This document shows positions 17,792 through 48,365 of a stretch of 64,000 nucleotides of DNA, one piece after another. Source of the DNA: Escherichia coli O157:H7 (GTDB lineage: Bacteria > Pseudomonadota > Gammaproteobacteria > Enterobacterales > Enterobacteriaceae); assembly GCF_013167455.1 (NCBI RefSeq), contig NZ_CP038328.1; one strand, written 5' to 3'. A program made the translations under genes and the position numbers. The notes below the pieces were generated by a model. It was given only the letters and a program-made list of their open reading frames with translations. It was not told where the DNA came from and made no database searches. The first letter of the stretch is position 1. Each line of letters begins with the position of its first letter.

Positions 17792-17839
17792 ATACGGGTG
17801 TTACCTGAAAGATTTCTACTCGGAACCAATCTTTAAAAT

Positions 17840-17937: not shown

Positions 17938-18013
17938 TGGTGGGTCGTGCAGGATTCGAACCTGCGACCAATTGATTAAAAGTCAACTGCTCTACCAACT
18001 GAGCTAACGACCC
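17938..18013 (-). tRNA. tRNA-Lys (UUU)
   Basis: 76 nt, identical to the copy at 17716-17791. Confidence 0.95.
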
Positions 18014-18016
18014 GAG

Positions 18017-18092
18017 TGGTGGGTGATGACGGGATCGAACCGCCGACCCCCTCCTTGTAAGGGAGGTGCTCTCCCAGCTGAGCTAATCACCC
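18017..18092 (-). tRNA. tRNA-Val (UAC)
   Basis: 76 nt; reverse complement reads GGGTGATTAGCTCAGCTGGGAGAGCACCTCCCTTACAAGGAGGGGGTCGGCGGTTCGATCCCGTCATCACCCACCA. Confidence 0.95.
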
Positions 18093-18143
18093 GATACTGC
18101 GCTGGATACTACAAACTACTTCCACCGAACCCACCGTAATTAG

Positions 18144-18219
18144 TGGTGGGTCGTGCAGGATTCGAACCTGCGACCAATTGATTAAAAGTCAACTGCTCTA
18201 CCAACTGAGCTAACGACCC
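18144..18219 (-). tRNA. tRNA-Lys (UUU)
   Basis: 76 nt, identical to the other tRNA-Lys copies. Confidence 0.95.
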
Positions 18220-18221
18220 GG

Positions 18222-18297
18222 TGGTGGGTGATGACGGGATCGAACCGCCGCCCCCCTCCTTGTAAGGGAGGTGCTCTCCCAGCTGAGCTAATCACCC
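18222..18297 (-). tRNA. tRNA-Val (UAC), one-base variant
   Basis: 76 nt; differs from the copy at 18017-18092 by one base in the variable-loop region (GCCCCCC versus GACCCCC on the plus strand). Confidence 0.9.
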
Positions 18298-18332
18298 GAT
18301 ATTACGCTGGATACTACAACTAACTAGGTTAG

Positions 18333-18408
18333 TGGTGGGTCGTGCAGGATTCGAACCTGCGACCAATTGATTAAAAGTCAACTGCTCTACCAACTGAGCT
18401 AACGACCC
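18333..18408 (-). tRNA. tRNA-Lys (UUU)
   Basis: 76 nt, identical to the other tRNA-Lys copies; first gene of the array (promoter lies at higher coordinates). Confidence 0.95.
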
Positions 18409-18572: not shown

Positions 18573-19364
18573 TTACATCGCGTTCAGACGTTTTTGTGCC
18601 TGTTTAGCGCCATCAGTACCAGGGTATTTACTGATAACCTGCTGGTATACGGCTTTCGCTTTTGCGGTGTCACCTTTGTCCTGCATGATGACGCCGACTT
18701 TAAACATCGCATCTGCAGCCTTTGGTGACTTCGGATAGTTTTTCACTACCGAAGCAAAATAGTACGCCGCATCATCTTTTTTACCCTTGTTGTAGTTTAA
18801 CTGACCCAGCCAATAATTGGCGTTTGGCAGGTAAGTTGAATCAGGGTAATTTTTGATGAAATTCTGAAATGCCACCATTGCGTCATCCTGGCGGGATTTA
18901 TCCTGCACCAGCGCAATAGCTGCATTGTAATCCGTGTTTGCATCACCGCTTTTCACCGGCGCGCCAGCATTCGCAGTACCAGCATCAGCTGTCGGCGTCG
19001 TTGATGCCGCCGCACCGCTTTGATCACCGCTGGTTGATTGCGCCGCTGCACCACCGCTGCTGAGGCTGTCGATCTGCAACAGGATCTGCTTTTGCCGCTC
19101 CACGACCTGATTCAGTTGATACTGATTTTCCTGAATCTGACCACGCAGGGAATCAATATCGGATTGATTATCAGAGAGTTGTTGCTGGAGTTGGGTTAAA
19201 AGCTGGCTGTGAGCATTAGAAATACGCTCAAGTTGAATGACGCGGTCTTCGACCGAGCCTGAGCCGACACTACTGATTGGTGCCTGAGCAAAAGCGGCCC
19301 AGGGGGCCGCTATACCAACCAGTAACGACAGACTCAATAGTTGATGTCTGAAGTTACTGCTCAT
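18573..19364 (-). CDS. cpoB: cell-division coordinator CpoB (YbgF), TPR protein
   Basis: 263 aa ORF with signal peptide, coiled-coil and C-terminal TPR repeats; last gene of the tol-pal cluster. Confidence 0.88.
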   Translation of the reverse strand: MSSNFRHQLLSLSLLVGIAAPWAAFAQAPISSVGSGSVEDRVIQLERISNAHSQLLTQLQQQLSDNQSDIDSLRGQIQENQYQLNQVVERQKQILLQIDSLSSGGAAAQSTSGDQSGAAASTTPTADAGTANAGAPVKSGDANTDYNAAIALVQDKSRQDDAMVAFQNFIKNYPDSTYLPNANYWLGQLNYNKGKKDDAAYYFASVVKNYPKSPKAADAMFKVGVIMQDKGDTAKAKAVYQQVISKYPGTDGAKQAQKRLNAM

Positions 19365-19373
19365 GCAATTCTC

Positions 19374-19919
<546 letters not shown>

Positions 19920-27790: not shown

Positions 27791-27804
27791 TTGATTTATA
27801 TCAA
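27791..27804. promoter_or_regulatory. FNR-type site in the cydAB upstream regulatory region
   Basis: TTGATTTATATCAA is a perfect TTGAT-N4-ATCAA match, about 340 bp upstream of the cydA start in a long AT-rich region. Confidence 0.55.
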
Positions 27805-28258
27805 AACCAACCAAATATGTTAATTATGTATAAACCATAGATCATTGGTGATTTTATTGTTAATTTATTGTGAAATATTTATGCAACACAATTATTACAA
27901 TGAAAAGGTATAGATAAAAAACCAGTATTTTATTTAACAGAACCGCCTTATCCACTTTTTATAATACCAATTGATTAGAGTAGCCAATTTGTTGCTATTT
28001 TACATAACATATTTTTATCAAAGTTAATTGATTGTTGCCTTTATGAGCACCGACCGTAAGCCCGTTATGTTATTGTTTCATTAGTAATAATCACTTAAAT
28101 GTATCGATGAAACAGGTATGACTTACCGGGAGTGATTGTTTCTGAGTGAACAGAGGCCACTTTCGCCTGATAAATGAAAAATGAGCGATTTTTGCAAGTT
28201 AGTTTTTCTATAGCCGAGTACGCTCAGCGCCTCGCTTGATTACAATGAGGTTGCTGCT

Positions 28259-29203
28259 ATGAGTCCTGATAATATCGGTTCGGCTGTCAATCGCTTCTCA
28301 GGTTGGCCATCTAATGATTCTCTAAAAACAGATAAAGAATCAATGACATCACCCGTGACTGTGCAGGTAATAAAGATGATTGCCGCCATCCTTGACCCAC
28401 ATCGGATAGTCGTTGGAATTGATACACTTTATACAACGCAGCGCGAAACATTTACCTCAGAGAGTCAACAGCTCATTGAATCAGCATTGCAAACACTTCA
28501 TGTGATGAATTTAAATAATCTGGAAACAAATCGCGATGAAGAAAGTCACTATCTGGCTTTTGAATATAACGTTGACACCTCTGACAGAATAACCGTTTCT
28601 GCTTATAATGAAAAAAAACCTGGCTGCTATGGCCAATGTCTTGTAATACAGGATGACGAAACAGACTTATTTAACCTGATAAAAATTAAAATTTTCGAAG
28701 CCAGGCATAATTATGTCGCTCAATTGATGAGCGATCCGGAATTTATGTTCAAATTCAGTTATAGCGCTCAACAAAATAGATTAGAACCTCATCTTCTGGT
28801 TCCCGCTTATTTCCCTCTAAAAACAAACGAACCGGTTACGCAAGAGGATGTACTGTTACTTTATCGTTTCTTTAAAATGAATGATGATTTTAATAAATTA
28901 ACATCAGATGAATACATGAGTATCCTGACACCTCTGATGAAGTGTGAGCGTAGCGTCCACGACAACAACAGGTATGTGACGGGCAAAGATACCCTTCTTC
29001 TGGACTATCCTCCTTCTGGTAACCAGATACATTTCCATGTTTTCCCTGACGAATCAGCAACACTAGTCCTTTATTTTTCAAACAATGACATTGAATGTTT
29101 CGTCTTTGAAAGAGATATTCCGAGCCAGTATCGCTTTTTCAAAATGTTTACCAATCTGGCACTGGTTATAGATCAGTTAACCGAAGCCAATAAAATACTT
29201 TAA
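28259..29203 (+). CDS. hypothetical protein, 314 aa, no recognisable family (AT-rich gene)
   Basis: 945-nt ORF in markedly AT-rich DNA where chance ORFs of this length are unlikely; no motif recognised by eye; start could alternatively be the internal ATG near 28345. Confidence 0.6.
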   Translation: MSPDNIGSAVNRFSGWPSNDSLKTDKESMTSPVTVQVIKMIAAILDPHRIVVGIDTLYTTQRETFTSESQQLIESALQTLHVMNLNNLETNRDEESHYLAFEYNVDTSDRITVSAYNEKKPGCYGQCLVIQDDETDLFNLIKIKIFEARHNYVAQLMSDPEFMFKFSYSAQQNRLEPHLLVPAYFPLKTNEPVTQEDVLLLYRFFKMNDDFNKLTSDEYMSILTPLMKCERSVHDNNRYVTGKDTLLLDYPPSGNQIHFHVFPDESATLVLYFSNNDIECFVFERDIPSQYRFFKMFTNLALVIDQLTEANKIL

Positions 29204-29284
29204 TTTTCTATATATCCCCTATGGCAAATATTGCTAAACAATGCCTGGGGATTAATTTTTATTACTCACGGAAAGATTTAAATA

Positions 29285-29707
29285 ATGATACCATCTCAGA
29301 TCTCTTTCAATACCCTTCCAGTCAATGCAACATACGCTTCAGAGACAACAGTTGACACACAAAAATTCTCTGACATCCTCTACTCAGCGGGGTGTTCCCT
29401 AAAGGATATGGCTTATCTGAGCAGATGTCTGGCATCAATACACCCGACTCTCGCCAAAAACATTTATGAAACAGAAAATCTCAGCGATCAAAAATTACTA
29501 CATATTGATTGCCGTAGTACAAATGAAATCAAGATAAATATCTTTTTTGGTCAACAACGAGAAGGATTAATTGAAATTAATTCTGACACAGTCATTTTTT
29601 CGATATTGTCTTCATTAATTGACTCCGCCATTTCTAAATTTCAACACCAAATCCCCGTTAACGGTTCAGTTAATCGTGAACTATTGTATGAGGATTATAC
29701 TGATTAA
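29285..29707 (+). CDS. hypothetical protein, 140 aa, no recognisable family (AT-rich gene)
   Basis: 423-nt ORF 81 bp downstream of the 314-aa ORF, same strand and similar composition; no signal peptide or motif recognised. Confidence 0.55.
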   Translation: MIPSQISFNTLPVNATYASETTVDTQKFSDILYSAGCSLKDMAYLSRCLASIHPTLAKNIYETENLSDQKLLHIDCRSTNEIKINIFFGQQREGLIEINSDTVIFSILSSLIDSAISKFQHQIPVNGSVNRELLYEDYTD

Positions 29708-30254
29708 ATCCACCCTGTCGCGAAAAATGGCCTGCGTTATTGCCAGACGTAATAAAACCTTTGATTAACGTTACTCATACTGATAGCACCTTCATGTACC
29801 TCTCTTTTTTACGAAAAATTAAAAGAGCTAACTAAGGTCATAATTCGCATGAATCATTAACCATTTGTTATTTTCAACATTATTTTTACATTAAGCAGAG
29901 ATGAATTGCAGTGAAATTCGACTTAAATCTTATGAAATGCATTTACTCATGGCTAAAACCACGTCACAAAAATGCAAATTAGAAGTAGATCACAATTATC
30001 TCAATACATTAAATCAAGTTAATTTTAAAAATTTAACACTCATGACATTAGTTGACATAACACACTGAATTAACATGGAAATTTAAAAACACACTTCAAA
30101 CAATCATTTCCCGAAAGACATTTTGAAAATAGATCAATTGCAACATTACGGTCAGATAAAGACACTCCTGTGATATTAAACCTGTGCCGTTATGAACGGC
30201 CATAAATACGACGTGTGTAACTTATTTTACTCTCTGTCTTACAAAGGATTACCC

Positions 30255-30704
30255 ATGAAGAAAGCAACACTTGTGATTGGCGTTATTGGCGCGGACTGCC
30301 ATGCAGTAGGCAATAAAGTTCTGGACCGCGTTTTTAGCAACCACGACTTCAGAGTCATTAATCTGGGCGTAATGGTCAGCCAGGACGAATATATTGATGC
30401 TGCCATTGAAACTGGCGCTGACGCGATTGTCGTCTCCTCTATCTATGGGCATGGCGATATCGACTGTCTGGGCATGCGCGAACGCTGCATCGAGCGTGGA
30501 CTGGGGGACATCCTGCTCTATGTGGGCGGTAACCTGGTGGTCGGAAAACATGACTTCGCTGACGTGGAAACCAAATTCAAAGAGATGGGATTTGATCGCG
30601 TCTTTGCCCCAAGTCATGACTTAGAAGATGTTTGCCAGCTGATGGCCCACGATATCAACCAACGTCATGACGTTGATACTCGTATTCTTGAAGAGGCTAT
30701 CTGA
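30255..30704 (+). CDS. mamA: glutamate mutase (methylaspartate mutase) S subunit, B12-binding
   Basis: ORF track 30192..30704; ATG at 30255 gives 149 aa [22 protein letters not shown] with the cobalamin-binding DxHxxG motif (DCHAVG); closely resembles clostridial GlmS/MutS. Confidence 0.88.
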
Positions 30705-32092
30705 TGCAAATCGTCTCTGTCGATATTGGATCGACGTGGACCAAAGCAGCCCTCTTTACCCGGGAGGGGGACGCGTTAACGTTGGTTAACCACGTACTGA
30801 CCCCAACCACCACCCATCATCTGGCGAAGGGGTTTTTCTCCAGCCTGAACCAGGTGTTAAACGTAGATAATGCCCTCCCCCTGTTAAACAGCGGTGAGGT
30901 TGCATTGAAGTATTCCTCCTCTGCCAAAGGTGGGCTGGCGGTTGCCGCAATGGGATTGGTGCCTTCTATCACCCTGGAAACCGCGAAAGTAACCGCTCAC
31001 TCTGCGGGTGCTAAAATTGCGCAATATTACGCCTACAAGCTGAACCGCCGTGATATCCAGGCACTGGAAGAAACGCAGCCCGATATTCTCTTGTTCACCG
31101 GCGGCACCGACGGCGGAGAAGAAAGCTACGGACTGAATAACGCCCGTGTGCTGGCAGAATCCAAACTCGACTGCGCCATTATTTATGCCGGAAACCGGGA
31201 TATTCAGGACGAGGTGCAGGAGATCCTCGGGCATAAAGACCTGACCATTGTCGACAACGTTCTGCCCGATCTTGACCATCCGAACCCTGTAGCTGCACGC
31301 CAGGCTATTTGCGACATATTCCTTAAACGCATCGTTAAAGGGAAAGGGCTGGATGTCATTGTTGATAAAACAGGCGAAGAACCAATGCCGACACCATGGA
31401 CGGTCTTTGAACTGGTCAAGGCAATCAGTAACGTCGATCACAGCTGGAAAGAGTTCATGCTGATCGACATGGGCGGCGCAACCACCGATGTTTATTCCGC
31501 CTGTGCCAACACGCTCTCGCCCGACACCGTTTTACACGGCGTACCGGAACCCTTCGTAAAACGGACGGTGGAAGGCGATCTGGGAATGCGCGTCTCGGCA
31601 GTGGTGGTTGGTGAAAGTGCGAAAGAGTTAGTCAATGTGAATTTTGCTCAGCAACCCGCACAGCTGGACGCTTTTTATCATTACCTCCGTCATCTAGTCG
31701 CTCATCCCGACTACTTACCCGCAAATGCAGAAGAGAAATATTTCGATACCGTCCTGGCCGGACTGTGTGTGGGTTATGCCACCGAAAGACATGCGGGCAC
31801 CAAAAAAGAGGTCTGCACCTGCGTCGGCAATGTCGATTTACAGATGGGACGTGACCTGACAACCGTGCGTAAAGTCGTCGGATCCGGCGGATGGCTCTCG
31901 CGTGCCAGTCAGTTCGATATGCATCACTGGTTGAAATACCGCGAGTTAAACGACGACGGTAAACGCATTCTCTTACCGACCGAATTTGAATATTACCGCG
32001 ATTCCCGGGGGCTATTACCACTGCTGGCAAACGTCGCCAGAGTCGATCCGCTGGCCGCCGCGCGCACCAGTATTCAATGCTTAACCCTATAA
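30704..32092 (+). CDS. glmL: glutamate mutase-associated protein GlmL/MutL (actin-like ATPase fold; proposed chaperone/reactivase)
   Basis: 462 aa ORF whose start overlaps the S-subunit stop by 1 nt; lies between S and E subunits as in clostridial operons. Confidence 0.7.
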   Translation: MQIVSVDIGSTWTKAALFTREGDALTLVNHVLTPTTTHHLAKGFFSSLNQVLNVDNALPLLNSGEVALKYSSSAKGGLAVAAMGLVPSITLETAKVTAHSAGAKIAQYYAYKLNRRDIQALEETQPDILLFTGGTDGGEESYGLNNARVLAESKLDCAIIYAGNRDIQDEVQEILGHKDLTIVDNVLPDLDHPNPVAARQAICDIFLKRIVKGKGLDVIVDKTGEEPMPTPWTVFELVKAISNVDHSWKEFMLIDMGGATTDVYSACANTLSPDTVLHGVPEPFVKRTVEGDLGMRVSAVVVGESAKELVNVNFAQQPAQLDAFYHYLRHLVAHPDYLPANAEEKYFDTVLAGLCVGYATERHAGTKKEVCTCVGNVDLQMGRDLTTVRKVVGSGGWLSRASQFDMHHWLKYRELNDDGKRILLPTEFEYYRDSRGLLPLLANVARVDPLAAARTSIQCLTL

Positions 32093-32110
32093 CAATTAAG
32101 GCTGCAATCA

Positions 32111-33556
32111 ATGGAACTTCGAAATAAGAAATTAACCCATGACGAATTCATGACCGAGCGGCAACAGGTACTGAAAACCTGGGAAACCGGCAAGGATGTT
32201 GAAAACTTTGAAGATGGCGTTAAATACCAACAAACCATCCCTGAGCATAAACGTTTCTCTCTTGCGCTGCTGAAAGCAGACAAGGAAGGTAAAACCCTTA
32301 GCCAACCGCGCGCAGGTGTGGCGCTGATGGACGAACACATCGAACTGCTGAAAACACTACAAGAAGAGTGCGATCTGCTGCCAAGCACCATCGATGCATA
32401 TACCCGTCTGAATCGGTACGAAGAAGCGGCTGTAGGGATTAAAAAATCCATCGAAGCCGGAACCTCTAAACTGAACGGTTTACCGGTAGTTAACCATGGT
32501 GTCGCAGCTTGCCGTCGCCTCACCGAAACCCTGCAAAAACCGCTACAGATCCGCCACGGCACGCCAGATGCGCGTCTGCTGGCTGAAATCTCAATGGCCA
32601 GCGGCTTTACCAGTTATGAAGGCGGTGGCATTTCCTACAACATTCCGTATGCCAAACGCGTAACGCTGGAAAAATCGATCCGCGACTGGCAGTACTGCGA
32701 CCGTTTAATGGGGATGTATGAAGAACACGGGATCCGCATCAACCGCGAACCGTTTGGCCCACTAACGGGTACGCTGATCCCGCCGTTTATCTCGCACTCT
32801 ATCGCGATAATCGAAGGCTTGCTGGCGCTGGAACAGGGTGTGAAATCTATCACCGTTGGTTATGGCCAGGTCGGCAGCCTGACGCAGGATGTTGCGGCGA
32901 TCCAGTCTCTGCGTGAACTTGCACACGAATATTTTCAGAGCTATGGCTATACCGACTATGAATTGAGTACCGTGTTTCACCAGTGGATGGGCGGCTTTCC
33001 GGAAGACGAATCGAAAGCGTTCGCTATTATCTCCTGGGGCGCAGCCGTCGCGGGGATGTCTGGTGCCACCAAAGTCATCACCAAAAGTCCGCACGAAGCC
33101 TGGGGTATCCCGACTGCCGCTGCCAACATTCAGGGGCTGAAAGCCTCCCGCCAAATGCTCAACATGGTCAATGAGCAGAAATTCCCGCCGTGCCCTGCGG
33201 TTGAACTGGAAATTGAACTGATTAAGAGCGAGGTTCGCGCGGTACTGAATAAAGTGTTCGAACTGGGTAATGGTGATATTGCGCGCGGAACGGTGCTGGC
33301 ATTTGAAGCGGGCGTACTGGATGTGCCGTTTGCGCCAGCCGCCTGCAACGCGGGCAAAATTCTTCCGGTCCGTGACAACACCGGCGCGATACGCGTACTG
33401 GAAGCCGGAGCCGTTCCATTGCCAAAAGATATTCTCGACCTCCACCACGATTACGTTGCGGAACGCGCACGCTGTGAAGGACGCCAACCGACATTCCAGA
33501 TGGTTGTAGATGACATCAATGCTGTATCCCACAGTAAATTAATAGGAAGACCATAA
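32111..33556 (+). CDS. glmE: glutamate mutase (methylaspartate mutase) E subunit, catalytic
   Basis: 481 aa ORF MELRNKKLTHDEF...QPRAGVALMDEHIELLK...LPSTIDAYTRLNRYEE, closely resembling clostridial GlmE. Confidence 0.9.
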   Translation: MELRNKKLTHDEFMTERQQVLKTWETGKDVENFEDGVKYQQTIPEHKRFSLALLKADKEGKTLSQPRAGVALMDEHIELLKTLQEECDLLPSTIDAYTRLNRYEEAAVGIKKSIEAGTSKLNGLPVVNHGVAACRRLTETLQKPLQIRHGTPDARLLAEISMASGFTSYEGGGISYNIPYAKRVTLEKSIRDWQYCDRLMGMYEEHGIRINREPFGPLTGTLIPPFISHSIAIIEGLLALEQGVKSITVGYGQVGSLTQDVAAIQSLRELAHEYFQSYGYTDYELSTVFHQWMGGFPEDESKAFAIISWGAAVAGMSGATKVITKSPHEAWGIPTAAANIQGLKASRQMLNMVNEQKFPPCPAVELEIELIKSEVRAVLNKVFELGNGDIARGTVLAFEAGVLDVPFAPAACNAGKILPVRDNTGAIRVLEAGAVPLPKDILDLHHDYVAERARCEGRQPTFQMVVDDINAVSHSKLIGRP

Positions 33557-34797
33557 TGAAAATAAAACAGGCTCTGTTCACCGCTGGCTACTCCTCATTC
33601 TATTTCGATGACCAGCAGGCGATAAAAAACGGAGCGGGTCATGACGGCTTTTTTTATACCGGGGAGCCAGTAACACAGGGGTTTAACGCCGTACGTCAGG
33701 CCGGGGAGTGCGTATCGGTACAGTTGATTCTGGAAAACGGCGCGGTCGCCGTAGGTGACTGTACTGCCGTACAGTATTCCGGGGCAGGCGGTCGCGATCC
33801 ACTGTTCCTCGCAGAGCACTTTATTCCGTTCCTCAACGACCATATCAAGCCATTACTGGTAGGCCGCGATGTGGATGCTTTCCTGCCGAATGCCCGTTTC
33901 TTCGACAAATTGCGTATTGACGGCAACTTGCTGCATACCGCCGTGCGCTACGGATTATCACAGGCGCTGCTTGATGCTACCGCGCTGGCAACCGGCCGTC
34001 TGAAAACTGAAGTGGTCTGTGATGAATGGCAGTTGCCACGCGTGGCGGAATCCATTCCATTATTTGGTCAGAGCGGCGACGATCGATATATCGCCGTCGA
34101 TAAGATGATCCTTAAAGGCATCGACGTGCTGCCCCATGCGCTGATTAATAACGTCGAAGAGAAGCTGGGCTTTAAAGGTGAAAAACTGCGCGAATATGTC
34201 CGCTGGTTGTCGGATCGCATTCTAAGCAAGCGCACCAGCGCACGCTACCACCCTACCCTGCACATCGATGTATACGGCACTATCGGTCTGATCTTCGATA
34301 TGGATCCGCTTCGCTGTGCGCAATACATCGCCAGCCTGGAAAAAGAAGCGCAAGGCCTGCCGCTCTACATCGAAGGGCCGGTCGATGCCGGTAACAAGCC
34401 CGATCAAATTCGCCTGCTGACCGCGATTACCAAAGAGCTGACGCGCCTCGGTTCCGGCGTGAAAATTGTGGCCGATGAATGGTGTAACACCTACCAGGAT
34501 ATTGTTGATTTCACTGATGCTGCCAGTTGTCACATGGTGCAAATCAAAACCCCGGATCTGGGCAGTATTCACAACATCGTCGATGCGGTTCTTTACTGCA
34601 ACAGCCACAGCATGGAAGCGTACCAGGGCGGCACCTGCAATGAAACTGATGTCAGTGCCCGCACCTGTGTCCACGTCGCCCTTGCCGCTCGCCCCATGCG
34701 TATGCTGGTAAAACCAGGGATGGGCTTTGACGAAGGCCTCGATATCGTCTTCAACGAAATGAATCGTACTATCGCGCTGTTGCAGGCTAAGGATTAA
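33556..34797 (+). CDS. 3-methylaspartate ammonia-lyase (beta-methylaspartase)
   Basis: 413 aa ORF MKIKQALFTAGYSSFYFDDQQAIKNGAGHDGFFYTGE...VQYSGAGGRDPLFLAE, enolase-superfamily MAL; start overlaps the glmE stop by 1 nt. Confidence 0.9.
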   Translation: MKIKQALFTAGYSSFYFDDQQAIKNGAGHDGFFYTGEPVTQGFNAVRQAGECVSVQLILENGAVAVGDCTAVQYSGAGGRDPLFLAEHFIPFLNDHIKPLLVGRDVDAFLPNARFFDKLRIDGNLLHTAVRYGLSQALLDATALATGRLKTEVVCDEWQLPRVAESIPLFGQSGDDRYIAVDKMILKGIDVLPHALINNVEEKLGFKGEKLREYVRWLSDRILSKRTSARYHPTLHIDVYGTIGLIFDMDPLRCAQYIASLEKEAQGLPLYIEGPVDAGNKPDQIRLLTAITKELTRLGSGVKIVADEWCNTYQDIVDFTDAASCHMVQIKTPDLGSIHNIVDAVLYCNSHSMEAYQGGTCNETDVSARTCVHVALAARPMRMLVKPGMGFDEGLDIVFNEMNRTIALLQAKD

Positions 34798-34800
34798 CAA

Positions 34801-36171
34801 ATGGCTCGTTCTTTTAAAGTCTTATCGCCAACGGCAATCCTCGGGTATGGATTCCCGGAAGAGAGCTTCCGCAAAGCGATGGCAGAATCGCCCGATCTGA
34901 TCGCCGTTGATGCAGGCTCTTCCGATCCAGGCCCCCACTACCTCGGGGCAGGCAAACCGTTTACCGATCGCGCAGGGGTCAAGCGCGATCTGCGCTATAT
35001 GATCACCGCAGGCGTGCAAAATAATATACCGGTGGTGATCGGAACGGCTGGCGGTTCTGGTGCCGCACCACACCTGGAGTGGTGCCGAGAAATAATTCAT
35101 GAGATTGCCCGGGAAGAGCACCTCTCGTTCTCGATGGCGTTGATCCCGGCAGACGTTGACAAAGCCATCGTCCACCAGGCGCTGGATAACGGCAAAATCA
35201 CGGCGCTGGATTTTGTCCCGCCGTTAACCCACGACGCGATTGACGAAAGTACGTATATCGTCGCGCAAATGGGCATCGAACCCTTCCAGCGGGCGCTGAA
35301 AGAACGCGCGCAAGTGGTGCTGGGCGGGCGCGCTTACGACCCGGCCTGCTTTGCTGCGCTCCCGATCATGCAAGGCTTTGATGAAGGTCTGGCGCTGCAT
35401 TGTGGGAAAATCCTTGAATGCGCGGCAATCGCCGCAACGCCCGGCTCAGGCTCTGACTGTGCGATGGGCATCATTGATGACAACGGCTTTACGCTGAAAA
35501 CATTTAATCCGAAGCGTAAATTTACCGAAACGTCAGCAGCTGCACACACACTGTATGAGAAATCCGATCCCTACTTCCTGCCAGGACCTGGCGGCGTGTT
35601 GAACCTGAAAGGCTGCACATTTAAAGCAGTAAATGACGGCGAAGTCTACGTCAGCGGTTCTAAGCATGAAGAAACGCCGTATGCCCTGAAACTGGAAGGT
35701 GCACGACGGGTGGGCTTCCGCTGTCTGACCATCGCCGGAACGCGCGACCCGATTATGATCGCCGGGATCGATAAAATCATCGATGAAGTCAAAACCAGCG
35801 TTTCGCGTAACCTGTCGCTCGACGATGACAGCATTCGCATCAATTTCCACCTGTACGGCAAAAACGGGGTGATGGGAGACCATGAACCGATGCAAACTGC
35901 CGGGCATGAGCTGGGGATTGTCCTTGATGTAGTTGCACCGACCCAGGAAATTGCCAACAGCGTTTGCTCGCTGGTGCGCTCTACCATGCTGCACTACGGC
36001 TATGAAAACCGCATCGCTACCGCAGGTAATCTGGCGTTCCCGTTCTCCCCTTCTGATATCCAGGGCGGGCCGGTATACGAATTTTCCATATATCACCTGA
36101 TTGAAGCCAACGACGCTCTGCGTTTTGATTTCCATATTGAACAGGTGACGCCAGAAGGAGTTCAGGCATGA
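34801..36171 (+). CDS. uncharacterised conserved protein, 456 aa (possibly DUF1446/AtuA-like; assignment from memory, unverified)
   Basis: ORF begins 3 nt after the MAL stop; Gly-rich segment GTAGGSGAAPH; no characterised catalytic motif recognised. Confidence 0.6.
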   Translation: MARSFKVLSPTAILGYGFPEESFRKAMAESPDLIAVDAGSSDPGPHYLGAGKPFTDRAGVKRDLRYMITAGVQNNIPVVIGTAGGSGAAPHLEWCREIIHEIAREEHLSFSMALIPADVDKAIVHQALDNGKITALDFVPPLTHDAIDESTYIVAQMGIEPFQRALKERAQVVLGGRAYDPACFAALPIMQGFDEGLALHCGKILECAAIAATPGSGSDCAMGIIDDNGFTLKTFNPKRKFTETSAAAHTLYEKSDPYFLPGPGGVLNLKGCTFKAVNDGEVYVSGSKHEETPYALKLEGARRVGFRCLTIAGTRDPIMIAGIDKIIDEVKTSVSRNLSLDDDSIRINFHLYGKNGVMGDHEPMQTAGHELGIVLDVVAPTQEIANSVCSLVRSTMLHYGYENRIATAGNLAFPFSPSDIQGGPVYEFSIYHLIEANDALRFDFHIEQVTPEGVQA

Positions 36172-36485
36172 AACAGTCAATTGTCTCACTGGCGCAAGTC
36201 ATTCGTTCGAAAAATGCCGGACCTTACGAACTGGTTTTAGATATTTTATTTAAAACGAAAGAAAACTATGAGCGAGTTAAATCATCAGGGCAATTAACCC
36301 CAGAACTGATTGCACGCTTATATCATGTTGAACCTGACTTTATTCATCGTATTGTCTGGTTTGATCCTTCTAACGCAGTAAAAATCGTCATGCCACGAGA
36401 TATTATCTCCGGGAATGTAGGTGACAATGATGTCTATGGTGCACAGCAACATGCACCTTTATTAAATATGAGTTTCGATTTGTAA
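36168..36485 (+). CDS. uncharacterised small protein, 105 aa (possibly DUF4387-like; unverified)
   Basis: ORF overlapping the preceding gene by 4 nt (ATGA), indicating translational coupling. Confidence 0.55.
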   Translation: MKQSIVSLAQVIRSKNAGPYELVLDILFKTKENYERVKSSGQLTPELIARLYHVEPDFIHRIVWFDPSNAVKIVMPRDIISGNVGDNDVYGAQQHAPLLNMSFDL

Positions 36486-36568
36486 AAATCCGAATACTTT
36501 TAGCCAACTGACATCCCGTCACTTATTGCAGTTCAACACTTCAGCTATTTGTAAGGTTGTAATAGCAG

Positions 36569-36600
36569 GTAGATGCCTGAATCTCTATTCAGGCATCTAC
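36569..36600 (+). terminator. Perfect 14-bp inverted repeat (terminator or operator candidate)
   Basis: GTAGATGCCTGAAT-CTCT-ATTCAGGCATCTAC between the 105-aa ORF and the transporter gene; only a weak T-run follows. Confidence 0.45.
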
Positions 36601-36645
36601 TTCTCCTGATTCTGATTTATCGCCGTGCACCTGATGGAGGAAAAA

Positions 36646-37926
36646 ATGAAGAAAATAAGTTTAACCACGATGATTCTTTTGGCGCTGGTACTTGGAATGA
36701 TTATCGGCGTAGTGCTCAATAACACTGCTTCACCGGAAACCGCAAAACTCTATGCGCAAGAAATATCGATATTCACGACGATTTTCTTACGACTGATAAA
36801 AATGATTATCGCTCCGTTAGTGGTCTCTACCCTGGTGGTAGGTATTGCTAAAATGGGCGATGCCAAAGCCCTTGGTCGTATTTTTTCTAAAACACTCTTT
36901 TTATTTATTTGCGCCTCATTGCTGTCAATTGCCTTAGGCTTGATAACGGTAAATTTCTTCATGCCAGGTACAGGAATTAATTTTGTTGCACACGGTGCCG
37001 AAACCACCGGAGTGGTCGCGGCAGAACCCTTTACGCTAAAAGTATTTATTTCGCATGCTTTCCCCACCAGCATTGTCGATGCCATGGCGCACAATGAAAT
37101 TTTGCAAATCGTGGTGTTCTCAATTTTCCTCGGCTGTAGCCTGACGGCGATTGGCGAGAAAGGCAGCGCCATCGTTCACGCCTTAGATTCGCTGGCACAT
37201 GCCATGTTAAAGCTCACTGGCTACGTCATGCTCTTCGCTCCCCTGACCGTATTCGCTGCTATTTCAGCATTGATTGCTGAACGAGGACTGGCAGTTATGG
37301 TGAGCGCCGGGATCTTTATGGGTGAATTTTATTTCACCATGTTATTACTTTGGGTACTGCTTATCGGTCTGGCCATCGTTTATGTCGGCCCCTGCATCAG
37401 ACGCCTGACCCGCGCCCTTTCGGAACCCGCCCTGCTGGCATTTACCACATCCAGTTCTGAAGCGGCTTTTCCGGGAACGCTTGAAAAACTGGAGCAATTT
37501 GGCGTTTCCCCCAAAATTGCCAGCTTTGTCTTACCCATTGGCTACTCATTTAATCTCGTTGGATCAATGGCCTACTGCTCCTTCGCCACAGTTTTCATCG
37601 CCCAGGCCTGCAATATCCATTTATCCATCGGTGAGCAAATCACCATGCTGTTGATCCTGATGTTGACCTCGAAAGGAATGGCTGGCGTACCACGCGCCTC
37701 AATGGTGGTTATCGCCGCCACGCTCAACCAGTTCAATATTCCGGAAGCGGGGCTGATCTTGCTGATGGGCGTTGATCCGTTCCTTGATATGGGGCGTTCC
37801 GCGACAAACGTCATGAGCAACGCAATGGGCGCTGCGATGGTGAGTCGGTGGGAAGGCGAACATTTCGGCGAGGGCTGTCGGGGTAAAGCATTAAAACCCA
37901 ATGAATCGAACGTTGCTCTGCCCTGA
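36646..37926 (+). CDS. dicarboxylate/amino-acid:cation symporter (GltP/DctA family), probable glutamate or C4/C5-dicarboxylate uptake
   Basis: ORF track 36625..37926; ATG at 36646 is preceded by GGAGG; multi-TM protein MKKISLTTMILLALVLGMIIGVVLNN. Confidence 0.75.
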   Translation: MKKISLTTMILLALVLGMIIGVVLNNTASPETAKLYAQEISIFTTIFLRLIKMIIAPLVVSTLVVGIAKMGDAKALGRIFSKTLFLFICASLLSIALGLITVNFFMPGTGINFVAHGAETTGVVAAEPFTLKVFISHAFPTSIVDAMAHNEILQIVVFSIFLGCSLTAIGEKGSAIVHALDSLAHAMLKLTGYVMLFAPLTVFAAISALIAERGLAVMVSAGIFMGEFYFTMLLLWVLLIGLAIVYVGPCIRRLTRALSEPALLAFTTSSSEAAFPGTLEKLEQFGVSPKIASFVLPIGYSFNLVGSMAYCSFATVFIAQACNIHLSIGEQITMLLILMLTSKGMAGVPRASMVVIAATLNQFNIPEAGLILLMGVDPFLDMGRSATNVMSNAMGAAMVSRWEGEHFGEGCRGKALKPNESNVALP

Positions 37927-38033
37927 GGGGGATCTTAAGCAATCAGAAGCCAATGACTACGCATTTTTATAAGCCGGATCATGAAGTTAGACGGCAATTA
38001 AGTAACACTAACGTTTAAGGTGAAAAGTGAAAT

Positions 38034-39686
38034 ATGTCCAAACCATTTATCTGGCAAGAACCGTTTCTACAAAATAAAGACGGTACAGAATATACATTAA
38101 TTAGCGATCAACATATTACAGTAACGGAATTAGACGGCGAAGAAGTGATAAAAATCGCTCCTGAAGCATTAACGCTGCTTGCCCGGCAGGCATTTTATGA
38201 AGCCTCTTTTTTCTTACGTTCCGCTCATTTGCAACAGGTCGCCAGCATTCTTAACGATCAGCAGGCCAGCAGTAATGATAAATACGTTGCGTTGCAGTTA
38301 TTACGTAATGCTGAAGTCTCAGCAAAAGGGGTATTACCCAACTGTCAGGATACCGGCACCGCAACTATTGTTGCCAGTAAAGGGCAACAGATATGGACCG
38401 GAGGTAACGACGCCGAAGCCTTAAGTAAAGGCATTTACAGTACTTTCCAGGAAAATAATCTGCGCTTTTCACAAAATGCGCCGCTGGATATGTATACCGA
38501 AGTCAATACGCAAACCAATCTCCCGGCGCAGATTGATATCAGCGCTGTCGCTGGTGATGAGTACCATTTTCTCTGTGTTAATAAAGGGGGCGGCTCCGCC
38601 AATAAAGCCGCGCTTTATCAGGAAACCAAATCCTTATTGCAACCAGAAAAACTGACCGCATTTTTAATCGAAAAAATGAAATCGCTGGGCACCGCTGCCT
38701 GCCCGCCTTACCACATCGCCTTTGTCGTCGGAGGGCTTTCAGCCGATCAAACCTTAAAAATTGCCAAGCTGGCCTCAACGAAATATTACGACAATTTGCC
38801 CACCAGCGGAAACGAGCAGGGACAAGCATTCCGTGATATTGAGCTGGAAAAAGTGTTGCTCGAGGCCAGTCAGCAATTTGGTATTGGTGCGCAATTTGGG
38901 GGTAAATATTTCGCTCATGATATTCGCGTCATTCGTCTGCCGCGTCACGGTGGCTCTTGCCCGATAGCTATGGCGCTCTCCTGTTCTGCCGATCGCAATA
39001 TCAAAGCAAAAATTAACAAACACGGTATCTGGCTGGAAAAACTCGAACACAATCCGGGGCAATATATTCCAGCCTCACTGCGGGAAGAAAATCACGCGCA
39101 ACATGTACAACTGGATCTAAACCGTCCGTTGCGTGACGTGATGCAGGATCTCGCCAGATTACCAGTAGGCACCCGCGTGTCGTTAAGTGGTCCCATCGTA
39201 GTGGCGCGCGATATCGCCCACGCCAAAATAAAAGCGCGGCTGGATAGCGGCGAACCGATGCCGGAGTACCTGAAGCATCATATTGTCTATTACGCTGGCC
39301 CGGCGAAAACACCGGAGAACATGGCCTGCGGTTCACTGGGTCCAACCACGGGCGGTCGAATGGACGGTTATATCGATACCTTCCAGGCGGCTGGCGGCAG
39401 TCTAGTGATGTTATCGAAAGGTAACCGCAGCCAGCAGGTCACCGATGCCTGTCACAAACATGGCGGCTTCAATCTGGGAAGTATTGGCGGTGCAGCTGCG
39501 TTACTGGCGCAAGAATATGTCAAAAGTCTGCGTTGCCTGGAATACCCGGAGCTGGGTATGGAAGCGGTGTGGATGATGGAAGTGGAAAATCTGCCCGCAT
39601 TCATCCTGGTAGATGATAAAGGCAATAATTTCTTTAGTCAGTTTGAGCAGCAACACCGCTGCGCCAGTTGCCCTGCGGGACATTAA
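38034..39686 (+). CDS. fumD: class I (Fe-S) fumarate hydratase paralogue, FumD-type mesaconase/fumarase
   Basis: 550 aa ORF closely similar to FumA/FumB over its length ([38 protein letters not shown]), located in the glutamate mutase cluster. Confidence 0.85.
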
Positions 39687-39695
39687 GGAAAATGA

Positions 39696-40298
39696 ATGGA
39701 AGCGCGAATTTCAACTGAACGGCATGTGCAGCGCCAACAGAAATTGAAGGAACAGGTCGATACGCGCGTCGCGGCGGCGATAGAGAAAAAAGGGATCTTG
39801 ATTGTTTTCACCGGCAACGGCAAAGGGAAATCCACTGCCGCGTTTGGTACTGTGACGCGCGCGGTGGGTCATGGCAAAACGGTGGGGGTTGCGCAGTACA
39901 TCAAGGGGCAATGGGACAACGGCGAATACAACCTTCTCCAGCCGCTGGGGGTTGAGTTTCATATTATGGGAACCGGTTTTACCTGGGAGACACAGAACCG
40001 GCAAGCGGATATCGACGCGGCGAAAGAGGTCTGGTCGGAAAGCAAACGGATGCTGGCTGACAAGCGTTACGACTTAGTGGTGCTTGATGAGCTGACCTAT
40101 ATGCTGGCTTACCATTATCTGGATACCGAAGAAGTGATCGCTTCTCTGCAAAACCGCCCGGCACAACAAAGTGTCATTGTCACCGGACGCGGTTGCCACA
40201 GTCAGATATTAAAAATGGCAGATACGGTCAGCGAAATCCGCCCCGTCAAACATGCTTTTGATAACGGCATTCAGGCCCAGCCGGGTATCGACTGGTAA
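39696..40298 (+). CDS. cob(I)alamin adenosyltransferase, BtuR/CobA family
   Basis: 200 aa ORF with P-loop FTGNGKGKSTAAFG and strong resemblance to E. coli BtuR. Confidence 0.85.
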   Translation: MEARISTERHVQRQQKLKEQVDTRVAAAIEKKGILIVFTGNGKGKSTAAFGTVTRAVGHGKTVGVAQYIKGQWDNGEYNLLQPLGVEFHIMGTGFTWETQNRQADIDAAKEVWSESKRMLADKRYDLVVLDELTYMLAYHYLDTEEVIASLQNRPAQQSVIVTGRGCHSQILKMADTVSEIRPVKHAFDNGIQAQPGIDW

Positions 40299-40301
40299 TA
40301 A

Positions 40302-40334
40302 CTGCGCCTGGCATCCCGCCAGGCGCAGGTTTTA
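40302..40334. terminator. Bidirectional hairpin between convergent adenosyltransferase and LysR genes
   Basis: CTGCGCCTGG-loop-CCAGGCGCAG followed by GTTTTA; overlaps the LysR stop codon. Confidence 0.5.
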
Positions 40335-41237
40335 CATCTCCTGCGGTACGACCGATTTCGCCAGCAACCATTCACGAAATTGCTGCAAGTGCGGTGAGTC
40401 AGACTTCTCTTCCTGCCACGTCATAATAAAACGATTACCGGTACGAATAGGCACATCACAGGGAATCACCATATCGCCACTATCCAAATCATGTTGAATA
40501 GCGAAACGTGGTAACAGCGCCACGCCGAGATTAGAGCGCACGGCGGCAATCAGCATTGAAAGCAAATCGAAACGTGGTCCGTTGTTGACCAGCGGACTGC
40601 TAACGCCAGATAAAGCAAACCACTCTTCCCAGCCAGTAATACGGGTGCTTTGATGCAGAAGTGGTAACTCAGTAAGCAGTTCTGCCACTGACAGTTTTTG
40701 ATCGGACATTGCAAGCAAACTGCCGCTGCATACCGGCAAAATCTCCTCTTCAAAGAGATATTCTACTTCCGCCCAGGGCGCGCAAAAATTTTCGCGCATA
40801 ATGACAGCATCGTACTCCCGATTAAGAAAATCGCCGTTATTAGCTAAAGAATGAATATTAACAATAATATCGGGATGTAACTTTGTGAATTCATGTAAAT
40901 TTGGGATTAACCAGTGGGTACTAAAAGTAGGATTAACGGCAAGTTCAATAACCTGAACCGTAGGCTGCCAGGTCATAATGGTATTGGTATCGCGTTCCAG
41001 CTTATTTAATGTTTCTTTTACTATCCCCAGGTAATACTTCCCTGTATCATTAAGAAAAATGCGTTTTTTAGAGTGTGAAAATAACGGAGTACGTAAAAAT
41101 TCCTCCAGCGCACTTACTTGTCTGAATACTGCACTTTGGGTTAACGCTAACTCCTCTGCCGCTCTGGTATAACTTTCATGACGTGCGACGACCTCAAAAG
41201 TCACCAGCAGTTCCGTTTTAGGTATTTTCCCTCGCAT
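40332..41237 (-). CDS. LysR-family transcriptional regulator
   Basis: 301 aa ORF with N-terminal HTH (LLVTFEVVARHESYTRAAEELALTQSAVFRQVSALE) and C-terminal substrate-binding domain. Confidence 0.85.
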   Translation of the reverse strand: MRGKIPKTELLVTFEVVARHESYTRAAEELALTQSAVFRQVSALEEFLRTPLFSHSKKRIFLNDTGKYYLGIVKETLNKLERDTNTIMTWQPTVQVIELAVNPTFSTHWLIPNLHEFTKLHPDIIVNIHSLANNGDFLNREYDAVIMRENFCAPWAEVEYLFEEEILPVCSGSLLAMSDQKLSVAELLTELPLLHQSTRITGWEEWFALSGVSSPLVNNGPRFDLLSMLIAAVRSNLGVALLPRFAIQHDLDSGDMVIPCDVPIRTGNRFIMTWQEEKSDSPHLQQFREWLLAKSVVPQEM

Positions 41238-41802
41238 AATGCCGTCCCTTAAAAATAGTTTAAACCATCAAAAATACATTACTTATTACGAAGTAATGGT
41301 AACCAAAGCAGCAATAAATAATTTATAAGAATCATGATTGACATTTATAAACCAGTAAGGCTGGCGTGACAAATATCTTAATCAGATAATAATAATCCGA
41401 AAAGCACAGCGCCTTTCGAATTATCCGGAATCACATTAAGTGAAAATTATTAAATTGATATCATTTATCATATCTGTGGATATTATGATAAACAATCAAC
41501 AAAGATTTTATTTTTGATTTATAGCATATCCCTCTAAGAATTTTTGCGATGCTGCAATATCCGGGGTAAAGACCCGATCCTGGCTGACAAATGGCACGAC
41601 TTGACGAAAAGCGGTGAACATCGCTTTTGTTGATTTACTTAACGCTACGGTCAAACGCTGGGAAGCCAGTGCATCAGGTAACGATTCGAAATTCGCCGTC
41701 GTTCTTATTCGTGGCTTGCGGTCGGTTGCGGCAATCCACAGTGGCTGTGGTCATGCAGTCAAGCCTGCAGTCAGATTTCGACCGTGGTTAACCGTTTAAG
41801 GC

Positions 41803-41903
41803 ATAAAAAAGGCCATCATACGATGGCCAACCATGTCGAAACCGACAGCCCTTCGCCATTCCTGTAGAGGGAAGCGGCGAGGGCTATTTCTTATTACAGA
41901 TAT
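41803..41903 (-). ncRNA. sdhX: SdhX (RybD) sRNA region, sucD 3'UTR ending at an intrinsic terminator
   Basis: 3'UTR of sucD on the minus strand ends in GGCCATCGTATGATGGCC plus TTTTTT and contains ACAGGAATGGCGAAGGGCTGTCGGTTTCGACATGG, which I recall as the SdhX region; exact 5' end not determined. Confidence 0.55.
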
Positions 41904-42773
41904 TTATTTCAGAACAGTTTTCAGTGCTTCACCGATATCCGCCAGGCTGCGAACGGTTTTCACGCCTGCGGCTTCCAGAGCAGCGAATTTCTCATCCGCA
42001 GTCCCTTTCCCACCGGCAATGATGGCACCCGCGTGGCCCATACGTTTGCCTTTCGGCGCAGTCACACCAGCGATGTAACCCACAACTGGCTTGGTAACGT
42101 GCTCTTTGATGTACGCAGCTGCTTCTTCTTCAGCGCTACCGCCGATCTCACCGATCATCACGATCGCTTCGGTCTGCGGATCTTTTTCGAACATTTCGAG
42201 AATGTCGATAAAGTTAGAGCCAGGGATCGGGTCACCGCCGATACCGACACAGGTCGACTGACCGAAACCGTAATCCGTGGTCTGTTTAACCGCTTCATAG
42301 GTCAGTGTACCGGAACGGGAAACGATACCCACTTTACCCGGTTTGTGAATGTGACCAGGCTGAATACCGATTTTGCATTCACCCGGAGTGATAACGCCTG
42401 GGCAGTTCGGGCCGATCATACGAACGCCTGCTTCATCCAGCTTCACTTTCACGGTCAGCATATCCAGCGTCGGGATGCCTTCAGTGATGGTGATAATCAG
42501 TTTGATGCCTGCGTCGATGGCTTCCAGAATGGAGTCTTTGCAGAACGGTGCTGGTACGTAGATAACAGAAGCGGTAGCGCCAGTAGCAGCAACAGCTTCA
42601 CGCACGGTGTTGAACACCGGCAGGCCGAGGTGGGTAGTACCGCCTTTACCTGGGGTTACGCCGCCAACCATTTTAGTGCCGTATGCAATGGCCTGTTCTG
42701 AGTGGAAAGTCCCCTGGCTACCGGTAAAGCCCTGGCAGATAACCTTGGTGTTTTTATCAATTAAAATGGACAT
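41904..42773 (-). CDS. sucD: succinyl-CoA synthetase alpha subunit
   Basis: 289 aa [48 protein letters not shown]. Confidence 0.92.
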
Positions 42774-45264: not shown

Positions 45265-48066
45265 TTATTCGACGTTCAGCGCGTCATTAACCAGATCTTG
45301 TTGCTGTTTCTGGTGAACGGACATATACCCTACCGCCGGAGAGGCGGAGGCCGGGCGGCCTGCATAACGCAGAGAAGCCCCAAACGGAATCACTTCACGG
45401 AAATGATGCTGGCTGCAGTACCATGCGCCCTGGTTGAGCGGCTCTTCCTGGCACCAGACAAAATCCTTGACGTGAGCAAACTGCTGCAACACTTCCTGCA
45501 TCGCTTTATGCGGGAACGGGTAGAGTTGCTCGATACGCACAATGGCGACATCGTGTTGATTGTTCTTACGACGCTGTTCCAGCAGGTCGTAATAAACCTT
45601 ACCAGAACACATCACTACGCGCTTCACGCCCTTCGGATCAAGCTCGTCGATTTCACCGATGGCTGGCAGGAAGGTGCCGTTCGCCAGTTCTTCGAGGCTG
45701 GAAACCGCCAGCGGATGACGCAGCAGGGATTTCGGCGACATCACGACCAGCGGACGACGCATCCCGCGCAGCGCCTGACGACGCAGCATGTGGTAAACCT
45801 GTGCCGGGGTAGACGGTACGCACACCTGCATGTTTTGCTCAGCACAAAGTTGCAGATAACGTTCCAGACGCGCGGAGGAGTGCTCCGGCCCCTGCCCTTC
45901 GTAACCGTGCGGCAGCAACATCACCAGACCACACATCCGGCCCCATTTCTGTTCGCCAGAGGAGATGAACTGGTCGATAACCACCTGCGCACCGTTGGCG
46001 AAGTCACCGAACTGAGCTTCCCAGATAGTCAGAGTGCGTGGTTCTGCGGTGGCATAACCGTATTCAAACGCCAGCACTGCTTCTTCAGAAAGTACGGAGT
46101 CCCAGACACGGAACGCGCCCTGGCCGTTATGGATGTGTTGCAGCGGCGTGTAAGTGGAACCGTTAGACTGGTTGTGGATCACCGCGTGGCGGTGGAAGAA
46201 GGTACCGCGACCGGAGTCTTCACCCGACAGGCGAACCGGAATGCCTTCGTCAACCAGCGTGGCGTAAGCGAGGTTTTCCGCGCCGCCCCAGTCGAACAGT
46301 TTCTCACCGGCAGCCATCGCCTGGCGATCGCCATAAATTTTGGCAACGCGAGACTGCATTTCAACCGCTTCCGGCACCGTGCTGATGCGTTTCGCCAGCT
46401 CCTGCAGGCGCTTCATCTCAACTTTATTCGGGTACTCTTCGTCCCATTCGTGGTTGAGGTACGGCGACCAGGTGAAAGAGTGCATGTTCATCGGACGCCA
46501 CTCTGCCACTACGCAATCGCCAGCATCCAGCGCATCGCGGTACAGGTTAACCATCTCGGTGGCATCTTCCAGCGTCGCCACTTTTTCCTGCTCCAGCTTG
46601 TCAGCATAGATTTTGCGCGGCGTCGGATGTTTTTTGATTTTCTGATACATCAGCGGCTGGGTTGCGCTCGGCTCGTCGGCTTCGTTGTGGCCGTGACGGC
46701 GGTAGCACACCAGGTCGATGAAGACATCACGTTTAAAGGTGTTACGGAAATCGAGCGCCAGACGGGTCACAAAGGCAACGGCTTCCGGATCATCCGCGTT
46801 AACGTGAAAAATCGGTGCCTGAACCATCTTACCGATATCAGTACAGTACGGCGTTGAACGGGCATCCAGCGGGTTAGAGGTGGTGAAGCCAACCTGGTTG
46901 TTGATAACGATACGTACCGTACCGCCAACTTCATAACCACGCGCTTTCGACATGTTCAGAGTTTCCTGAACCACGCCCTGCCCGGTCACTGCGGCGTCAC
47001 CGTGAATGGTGATTGGCAGCACTTTGTTGCTGCTCGGCTCATCAAGTCTGTCCAGACGGGCACGAACAGAACCGATAACGACCGGGCTGACAATCTCAAG
47101 GTGAGACGGGTTAAACGCCAGCGCCAGATGTACCAGGCCGCCATCGGTCTGGAAGTCAGACGAGAAGCCCATGTGGTATTTCACGTCACCCGTGCCGAGG
47201 TGTTCTTTATGTTTACCGGCAAACTCGTCGAACAAGTCTTGCGGTTTTTTACCCAGCACGTTCACCAGCACGTTCAGACGACCACGGTGCGCCATCCCGA
47301 GAACCACTTCGCGGGTGCCGCTGTTGCCAGCGTGGCGAATCATCTCTTTAAGCATCGGGATTAACGCGTCACCGCCTTCCAGCGAGAAGCGTTTTGCGCC
47401 AGGGAATTTTGCACCGAGGTAACGTTCAAGGCCTTCAGCGGCGGTCAGTTCGCTTAGGAAGCGTTTTTTCTCTTCGCTATTGAAAGTCGCGCGACCAGAC
47501 TCGATACGCTGTTGGATCCAGCGTTTTTCTTCGGTGCTGGTAATGTGCATATACTCGGCACCAATCGGGCCGCAGTAGGTTTGCTTGAGGGCTTCCAGCA
47601 GCTCGCCGAGTTTCATGGTTTCTTTGCCGCTGGCAAATGAACCGACGTTGAAGGTCTCCTGGAAGTCTGCTTCGGTCAGATCGTGGAAAGACGGATCCAG
47701 ATCGGCCACTTTATCTTGCTGCCACAGTCCCAGCGGATCGAGATTCGCATGCTGGTGACCACGGAAGCGGTATGCGTTAATGAGCTGCAGGACTTTTACC
47801 TGCTTCACATTGGTGTCAGGGTCGGAGATCGTTGAAGAGTAACGTGAAGCGTCTTTCGCCAGGCGGCGGAAATATTCACGCGTTTGAGAGTGGAATTGAT
47901 CCGGTTTGACTCCCGTACCAGGTAACTGCTGGAACGTCGAACGCCAGTTAGCGTCAACCGAGTCAGGATCGGTTAAGAAGTCTTCATAGAGCTGTTCTAT
48001 CCAGCTCTGGTTTGCGCCAGAGAGGTAAGAAGAGTCCAACCAGGCTTTCAAAGCGCTGTTCTGCAT
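45265..48066 (-). CDS. sucA: 2-oxoglutarate dehydrogenase E1 component
   Basis: 933 aa [34 protein letters not shown]. Confidence 0.92.
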
Positions 48067-48245: not shown

Positions 48246-48365
48246 GCCTGATGCGCTGCGCTTATCAGGCCTACGGGTAATGACTTGTAGGCCGGATAAG
48301 GCGTTCACGCCGCATCCGGCACTGGTTGCCTGATGCGACGCTTGCGCGTCTTATCAGGCCTACGG
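48246..48365. repeat. BIME with three REP units between sucA and sdhB
   Basis: GCCTGATGCGCTGCGCTTATCAGGCCTACG, GTAGGCCGGATAAGGCGTTCACGCCGCATCCGGCA and GCCTGATGCGACGCTTGCGCGTCTTATCAGGCCTACGG. Confidence 0.8.

Follow-up and report, generated by a model that had tools for sequence, protein, structure and literature searches.

The small RNA gene sdhX lies intact at the sucD edge of a variable region in Escherichia coli O157:H7

We analysed a window of 64,000 nt (the whole stretch of DNA under study) from Escherichia coli O157:H7, which is oriented opposite to the K-12 map. On its minus strand lies sucD, the last gene of sdhCDAB-sucABCD, ending in a TAA stop codon at 41904-41906; the matching O157:H7 record has the operon order sdhCDAB-sucAB(odhB)CD upstream of the sucD 3' untranslated region (3'UTR). 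Read from 41903 down to 41803, this 3'UTR aligns without gaps to the K-12 non-coding RNA gene sdhX (b4764, NC_000913.3 765050-765150) with 100 of 101 nt identical (megablast E = 7e-45, far beyond chance). The sole mismatch is at nt 100, which is G in K-12 and A at window position 41804; it falls 3' of the U6 tract and is probably outside the RNA or at its very end. A 701-base query around sdhX is 100% identical to O157:H7 strains, for example PV15-279. The coordinates of the features discussed here are collected in Table 1.

Table 1. Features at the sucD 3' end and in the neighbouring accessory block (window positions)
Feature	Position	Strand	Basis or remark
sdhX (RybD), full-length sRNA region, equal to the sucD 3'UTR, 101 nt	41803-41903	-	K-12 alignment, fold, genome survey
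sucD CDS (succinyl-CoA synthetase alpha subunit)	41904-42773	-	ORF list; annotation in the O157:H7 record and in K-12
5' stem-loop of the long form, SdhX nt 19-57	41847-41885	-	MFE fold; identical to K-12
Conserved seed UUCGACAUGGU, SdhX nt 64-74, core CGACAU	41830-41840	-	published seed; identical to K-12
Rho-independent terminator, putative Hfq-binding module	41805-41828	-	terminator scan and fold
Junction with K-12-type sequence	41799-41804		pairwise alignment, blastn end points, four- and eight-way alignments
Decayed 3' remnant of a convergent rtcB-family gene	41705-41802	+	blastn against the intact gene of strain NRZ96052a; tblastn; alignment
Accessory block, ~14 kb, replacing K-12 mngR-mngA-mngB	27830-41802		homology to K-12 starts again at 27829, upstream of cydA

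The sequence-only reading had named the element at 41803-41903 as the source of SdhX. The near-complete identity to b4764, the seed, the terminator and the position directly after the sucD stop codon bear out this assignment, and the coordinates are exact; the strand, which had not been given, is the minus strand. In the K-12 alignment that had been proposed as a check, the seed region is identical to K-12 and matches the published UUCGACAUGGU. Likewise, the intrinsic terminator was correctly described as intact, with its hairpin and U6 at 41828-41805. SdhX in this window is thus an already known, fully conserved and ordinary element.

The 101-nt RNA has a predicted folding energy of -41.3 kcal/mol (z = -4.67), a value that none of 200 dinucleotide-shuffled sequences reaches. 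In the predicted fold, a long 5' stem-loop precedes the seed-bearing region, and a hairpin with the U6 run closes the RNA. This terminator has a 7-bp stem, GGCCAUC/GAUGGCC (41828-41822 paired with 41817-41811), a 4-nt loop (GUAU) and the U-tract at 41810-41805. The 5' stem-loop is the E. coli-specific, variable part of SdhX and contains the polymorphic nt 36 and 46; the katG-pairing region is also contained in the variable 5' part (PMC6393394). No sigma-70-like promoter was found on the minus strand between 41200 and 42100, which fits release of the RNA from the operon mRNA by processing. Scans with Rfam 15 found no match to SdhX/RybD here, neither in a gathering-threshold scan of the whole window nor in a scan of 41300-42100 at E <= 10. 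Since Rfam 15 appears to lack a model for SdhX, the missing match is uninformative and does not count against membership. The weak Rfam matches that did appear (isrD, RsaOG and tmRNA fragments, all with E >= 0.5) are attributed to chance.

SdhX (formerly RybD) is an Hfq-dependent sRNA that RNase E releases from the 3' end of the ~10-kb sdhCDAB-sucABCD mRNA, in forms of ~101 nt and ~38 nt; acetate kinase is repressed through base pairing of UUCGACAUGGU (core CGACAU) to the AUG and UCG codons of ackA, and the E. coli RNA also represses fdoG and, via its variable 5' region, katG (PMC6393394, PMC9438474). In the window the seed ends 1 nt 5' of the terminator stem, and its core is complementary to these two ackA codons. 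The single-sequence MFE fold pairs nt 58-61 with nt 65-68, a weak 4-bp hairpin closed by nt 64-68, and leaves nt 69-75 unpaired. The predicted duplex between seed and ackA has an energy of -17.1 kcal/mol, compared with -10.9 +/- 2.5 kcal/mol for shuffled targets, of which 18 in 1000 reach the observed value. The target is as well preserved as the regulator: the region from -100 to +100 of ackA in O157:H7 PV15-279 is 100% identical to K-12, and it is at least 99% identical to K-12 in 5,407 of 5,424 genomes. With both the RNA up to the U-tract and the ackA region identical to K-12, the same regulation of ackA is to be expected in this strain, as judged from sequence. A literature search for EHEC-specific expression of SdhX gave no paper that reports it directly.

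The element can be compared with three sets of characterized RNAs. The K-12 SdhX occupies the same position and strand and has the same seed, 5' stem-loop and terminator. The difference lies downstream, where K-12 has mngR and the window has the remnant of an rtcB-family gene and, beyond it, the methylaspartate island. SdhX of Salmonella shares the 3'UTR origin, the seed UUCGACAUGGU, the layout of terminator and U-tract, and ackA as the conserved primary target, whereas its stop-to-seed region is unrelated and lacks the katG-pairing region of the E. coli form (PMC6393394). It also targets fumB and yfbV, which E. coli SdhX does not (PMC6393394, PMC9438474). CpxQ, SroC, NarS and MalH resemble SdhX in having no promoter of their own, in being released from the 3' end of a parental mRNA and in using the terminator as the Hfq module (PMC9438474). 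Compared with these RNAs, SdhX conserves little beyond its short seed and the GC-rich stem and U-tract of its terminator (PMC6393394), a sparseness that our alignments reproduce (see the spacer lengths below).

The unbroken identity to K-12 stops at 41805, the last T of the U-tract, and nothing aligns past 41799. The bases between, 41799-41804, contain only scattered matches (A/G, TGC, C/T, T) and are followed by unrelated sequence. The sequence-only reading had placed sdhX within about 300 bp of the junction. This is wrong: the distance is 0-6 nt after the U-tract, the junction adjoins the terminator, and the sucD-side boundary of the accessory region has to be moved from near 41,500 to the U-tract (41799-41804).

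What lies immediately past the boundary is the decayed end of another gene. Two pieces, 41764-41802 and 41705-41761, match positions 6199-6236 and 6412-6468, respectively, of the locus L003, and tblastn gives 17/24 and 10/12 identities to residues 375-398 and 451-462 of the RtcB family. The remnant has suffered a 175-bp internal deletion, and a 1-nt insertion shifts its stop codon to 41797-41799. The intact rtcB-family gene (465 aa) is convergent with sucD and stands beside a hut cluster, for example in strain NRZ96052a, an arrangement shared by 157 genomes of E. coli; the last two T's of the SdhX U-tract and the A that follows make up the TAA stop codon of the gene. The persistence of this one remnant suggests that the O157-type cassette derives from an arrangement in which an rtcB-family gene abutted the terminator. 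The first ~100 bp of the 'island' are thus the tail of an rtcB-family gene and not island cargo. The adjoining segment, 41500-41703, lies between the remnant and the AT-rich region upstream of lysR and contains a minus-strand open frame of 70 codons ending at ~41511. It has no blastn or tblastn match in the fetched loci except the identical O157:H7 record, and no Pfam match below E = 0.07.

The gene content of the accessory block was taken from the RefSeq annotation of the O157:H7 PV15-279 record, Pfam and the GC profile. The block encodes glutamate mutase (glmS/glmL/glmE), methylaspartate ammonia-lyase, an AtuA-like protein, a DUF4387 protein, a dicarboxylate symporter, FumD (a class I fumarase/mesaconase), cobO and a LysR regulator; FumD, CobO and LysR are backed by Pfam matches. 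A glutamate-fermentation (methylaspartate) cluster with FumD has been described in O157:H7 (PMC4682846), and the block holds the same genes (glutamate mutase, methylaspartate ammonia-lyase and FumD). To SdhX this cluster is a neighbour only: neither the motif search at gene starts nor the seed-complement search of the 64-kb window found a functional link between the two. The LysR regulator gene (40332-41237, minus strand) is co-directional with sucD and lies ~570 bp downstream of the SdhX terminator; transcription of the sdh-suc operon that continues past the terminator could in principle extend into it. At the opposite, cydA-side end of the block, 27800-30200 is AT-rich (GC 0.32-0.37) and contains two hypothetical ORFs, 28259-29203 (314 aa) and 29285-29707 (140 aa); 27830-28094 is shared with genomes that carry the TPR-type cassette (see below) and is absent from K-12.

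Two repeats were considered as island-flanking or att-like sites and set aside. An inverted pair (I8; 28301-28318 versus an arm of the terminator) is judged to be a chance match: it is an 11-nt exact match only, with neither a second arm nor a T-run, and is one of 14 pairs of similar quality. A 27-nt direct repeat (D1), which pairs 40049-40075 in cobO with 41576-41602, raised the possibility of a second cobO remnant; a tblastn search with CobO found nothing.

The surroundings of sdhX were surveyed in 5,426 complete E. coli genomes, classified by the sequence that follows the gene. Four cassettes account for 5,406 of 5,425 genomes: the K-12-type mngR-mngAB cassette (3,867 genomes), the O157-type cassette with the methylaspartate island (835), a TPR-protein gene followed by cydA (547) and an rtcB-family gene with hut (157). 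With one representative aligned for each cassette, the shared sequence stops within a few bases of the U-tract in every case, the last common position being sdhX nt 101. The convergent mngR of the K-12-type cassette stops 2 nt past the annotated sdhX end. The gene itself is present in 5,425 of the 5,426 genomes, and no genome falls below 95% identity in the 48-nt part that comprises seed and terminator. The only disrupted copy, in FDAARGOS_944 (NZ_CP065613.1; L127, 3001-3880), is of the mngR type and carries an IS1 insertion after nt 73, at the junction of seed and terminator.

An alignment of sdhX from eight representative genomes has variable positions only at nt 36, 46, 83 (in the terminator loop) and 100. 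The first three, which correspond to window positions 41868, 41858 and 41821, define two alleles, U36/U46/G83 in K-12 and O157 and C36/G46/U83. The latter was found with both mngR and TPR cassettes (compared in five loci), and allele and downstream cassette are therefore unlinked. As sdhX is present in all genomes except one and the boundary lies within a few bases of the U-tract in the representatives of all four cassettes, retention of sdhX is the universal state of the locus and not a property of the O157 replacement; it is what any homologous exchange in the conserved sucD flank would give.

Beyond E. coli, the 3' ends of sucD were sampled at 120 loci with a degenerate pattern placed inside the sucD coding sequence, a choice that avoids circularity. 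The core CGACAU (CGACAT in DNA) occurs within 100 nt of the sucD stop codon in 21 of 44 Enterobacterales versus none of 74 other Gammaproteobacteria. The carriers include Citrobacter, Enterobacter, E. albertii, Kluyvera, Pluralibacter, Phytobacter and Siccibacter, together with Mangrovibacter, Superficieibacter, Serratia, Rahnella, Hafnia and Brenneria. In all these carriers a GC-rich hairpin with a T-run follows CGACAT at a distance of 2-5 nt. The stop codon is separated from the seed by a freely varying spacer of 10 to 66 nt, and past the T-run the genera have unrelated sequences. In an alignment of 20 species GACAU is invariant and the terminator stem covaries, with 99.3% of cells paired and compensatory changes at four of seven pairs; slid controls gave 22-60%. 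The occurrence of CGACAU across species, the covariation of the stem and the single disrupted copy in 5,426 genomes support purifying selection on seed and terminator.

Other samples depart from this pattern. In Yersinia aldovae and Y. artesiana the first 60 nt past the sucD stop codon contain GTTCGACACC, in which one base of the seed core is changed (CGACAC instead of CGACAT), before a hairpin. The samples from Photorhabdus, Providencia, Pantoea and Erwinia have the terminator only, without the seed. In both E. albertii and Superficieibacter electus the T-run of SdhX is followed by ATTTCAGCATAATGCT, which differs from the four E. coli cassettes; this shared downstream sequence is probably the end of another convergent gene.

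A break only 0-6 nt past the U-tract could be read as the mark of sRNA-specific selection on the O157 replacement, recombinants with a damaged SdhX having been purged so that the break came to lie at the terminator. The sequence-only reading took this line when it held that the replacement had preserved the sRNA precisely, consistent with selection. Part of this stands, in that the sRNA and its terminator are intact, that seed and terminator both show purifying selection between species and that only the IS1 insertion disrupts sdhX among the genomes surveyed. As an argument from this locus alone it is weak, and we consider it unlikely that such selection shaped the replacement. The representatives of all four cassettes lose the shared sequence within a few bases of the same U-tract, and the same sdhX allele occurs with different cassettes just as different alleles occur with the same cassette; boundary and alleles are independent of the cassette, so that the boundary is a property of the locus and not of the O157 event. 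The hairpin also terminates a highly expressed ten-kilobase operon, and selection on the sRNA is inseparable here from selection on termination. Furthermore, with mngR ending 2 nt beyond sdhX and the rtcB-type stop codon overlapping the U-tract, the convergent genes are packed so closely that there is no intergenic DNA to spare where a break could otherwise lie. A general caution follows: an element at the edge of a conserved flank looks 'precisely preserved' by any replacement, with or without selection. The tight packing of convergent genes could in turn be functional, the SdhX terminator being the invariant left border of a hotspot between sucD and cydA where at least four cassettes replace one another. 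The hairpin might then act for the transcripts from both sides, or formation of the SdhX 3' end, or SdhX abundance, might depend on which gene lies downstream, and cassette turnover would subtly retune SdhX levels between lineages. We regard this as a long shot.

It is also conceivable that in this lineage the element acts as the operon terminator only, its function as an sRNA having been lost or become irrelevant. Such a reading could draw on the RefSeq annotation, which has nothing at this position in non-K-12 genomes; this gap is, however, consistent with the lack of an Rfam match for SdhX/RybD and does not speak to biology. The RNA is identical through the U-tract to the experimentally characterized K-12 SdhX, and the ackA site is identical in the matching O157:H7 strain, which makes a loss of function highly improbable. 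We give just as little credence to the idea that SdhX has gained lineage-specific targets in the adjacent glutamate-fermentation island. The attraction of this idea is metabolic: acetate and pyruvate are products of the island's pathway, acetate kinase is under SdhX control, and FumD of the island belongs to class I, as does the fumarase encoded by fumB, a gene that SdhX controls in Salmonella (PMC6393394). The island's gene starts nevertheless offer nothing to pair with: the motif AUGUCG(A) occurs at none of them, and the start of fumD reads AUGUCCAAA. Duplex energies calculated in this search were discounted, since pairing with the terminator sequence inflates them. A search of the 64-kb window for ACCATGTCGAA with up to two mismatches found the exact seed complement at the sdhX locus alone. 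By ORF coordinates, the three matches with one mismatch fall inside coding regions (inside an HAD-like ORF, antisense to cyd genes and inside sucA) and none is at a gene start. Moreover, sdhX adjoins four different cassettes, and its adjacency is not specific to the island.

We are confident in the main account, namely that this is the known SdhX, intact and expected to act as in K-12, with a variable sucD-cydA region beyond it whose turnover spares sdhX. By analogy with K-12 and Salmonella, the operon transcript would end at the hairpin and U-tract, and RNase E would cut free species of ~101 nt and ~38 nt, both retaining the terminator as a handle for Hfq. The single-stranded seed UUCGACAUGGU would then pair with the start-codon region of ackA and repress acetate kinase, thus coupling expression of the TCA-cycle operon to acetate metabolism. 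The conserved flank ends with the sucD 3'UTR, which is why strain-specific sequence sets in right at the end of the U-tract. Exchange of cassettes, for which homologous recombination within the conserved flanking sequences is the simplest mechanism, would spare sdhX in every configuration. The 3' neighbourhood that differs from K-12 may affect termination efficiency or antisense transcription across sdhX. The role of the sRNA SdhX in linking the TCA-cycle operon with acetate metabolism has been characterized, and the present observation matters little beyond annotation: O157:H7-type genomes carry the gene unchanged though RefSeq leaves it unannotated outside K-12.

Other RNA features were noted elsewhere in the window. 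An Rfam match to naRNA4 (a REP-type, nucleoid-associated RNA; 88.4 bits) at 48290-48360 on the plus strand probably falls in the sdhB-sucA intergenic region, as the match is situated a little past the start of the sucA ORF (45265-48066, minus strand). A seven-gene tRNA array with an RtT element (17719-18408) and the CpoB/ybgF RNA thermometer (19335-19473; 142 bits), both on the minus strand, are the expected K-12-like neighbours downstream of tol-pal.
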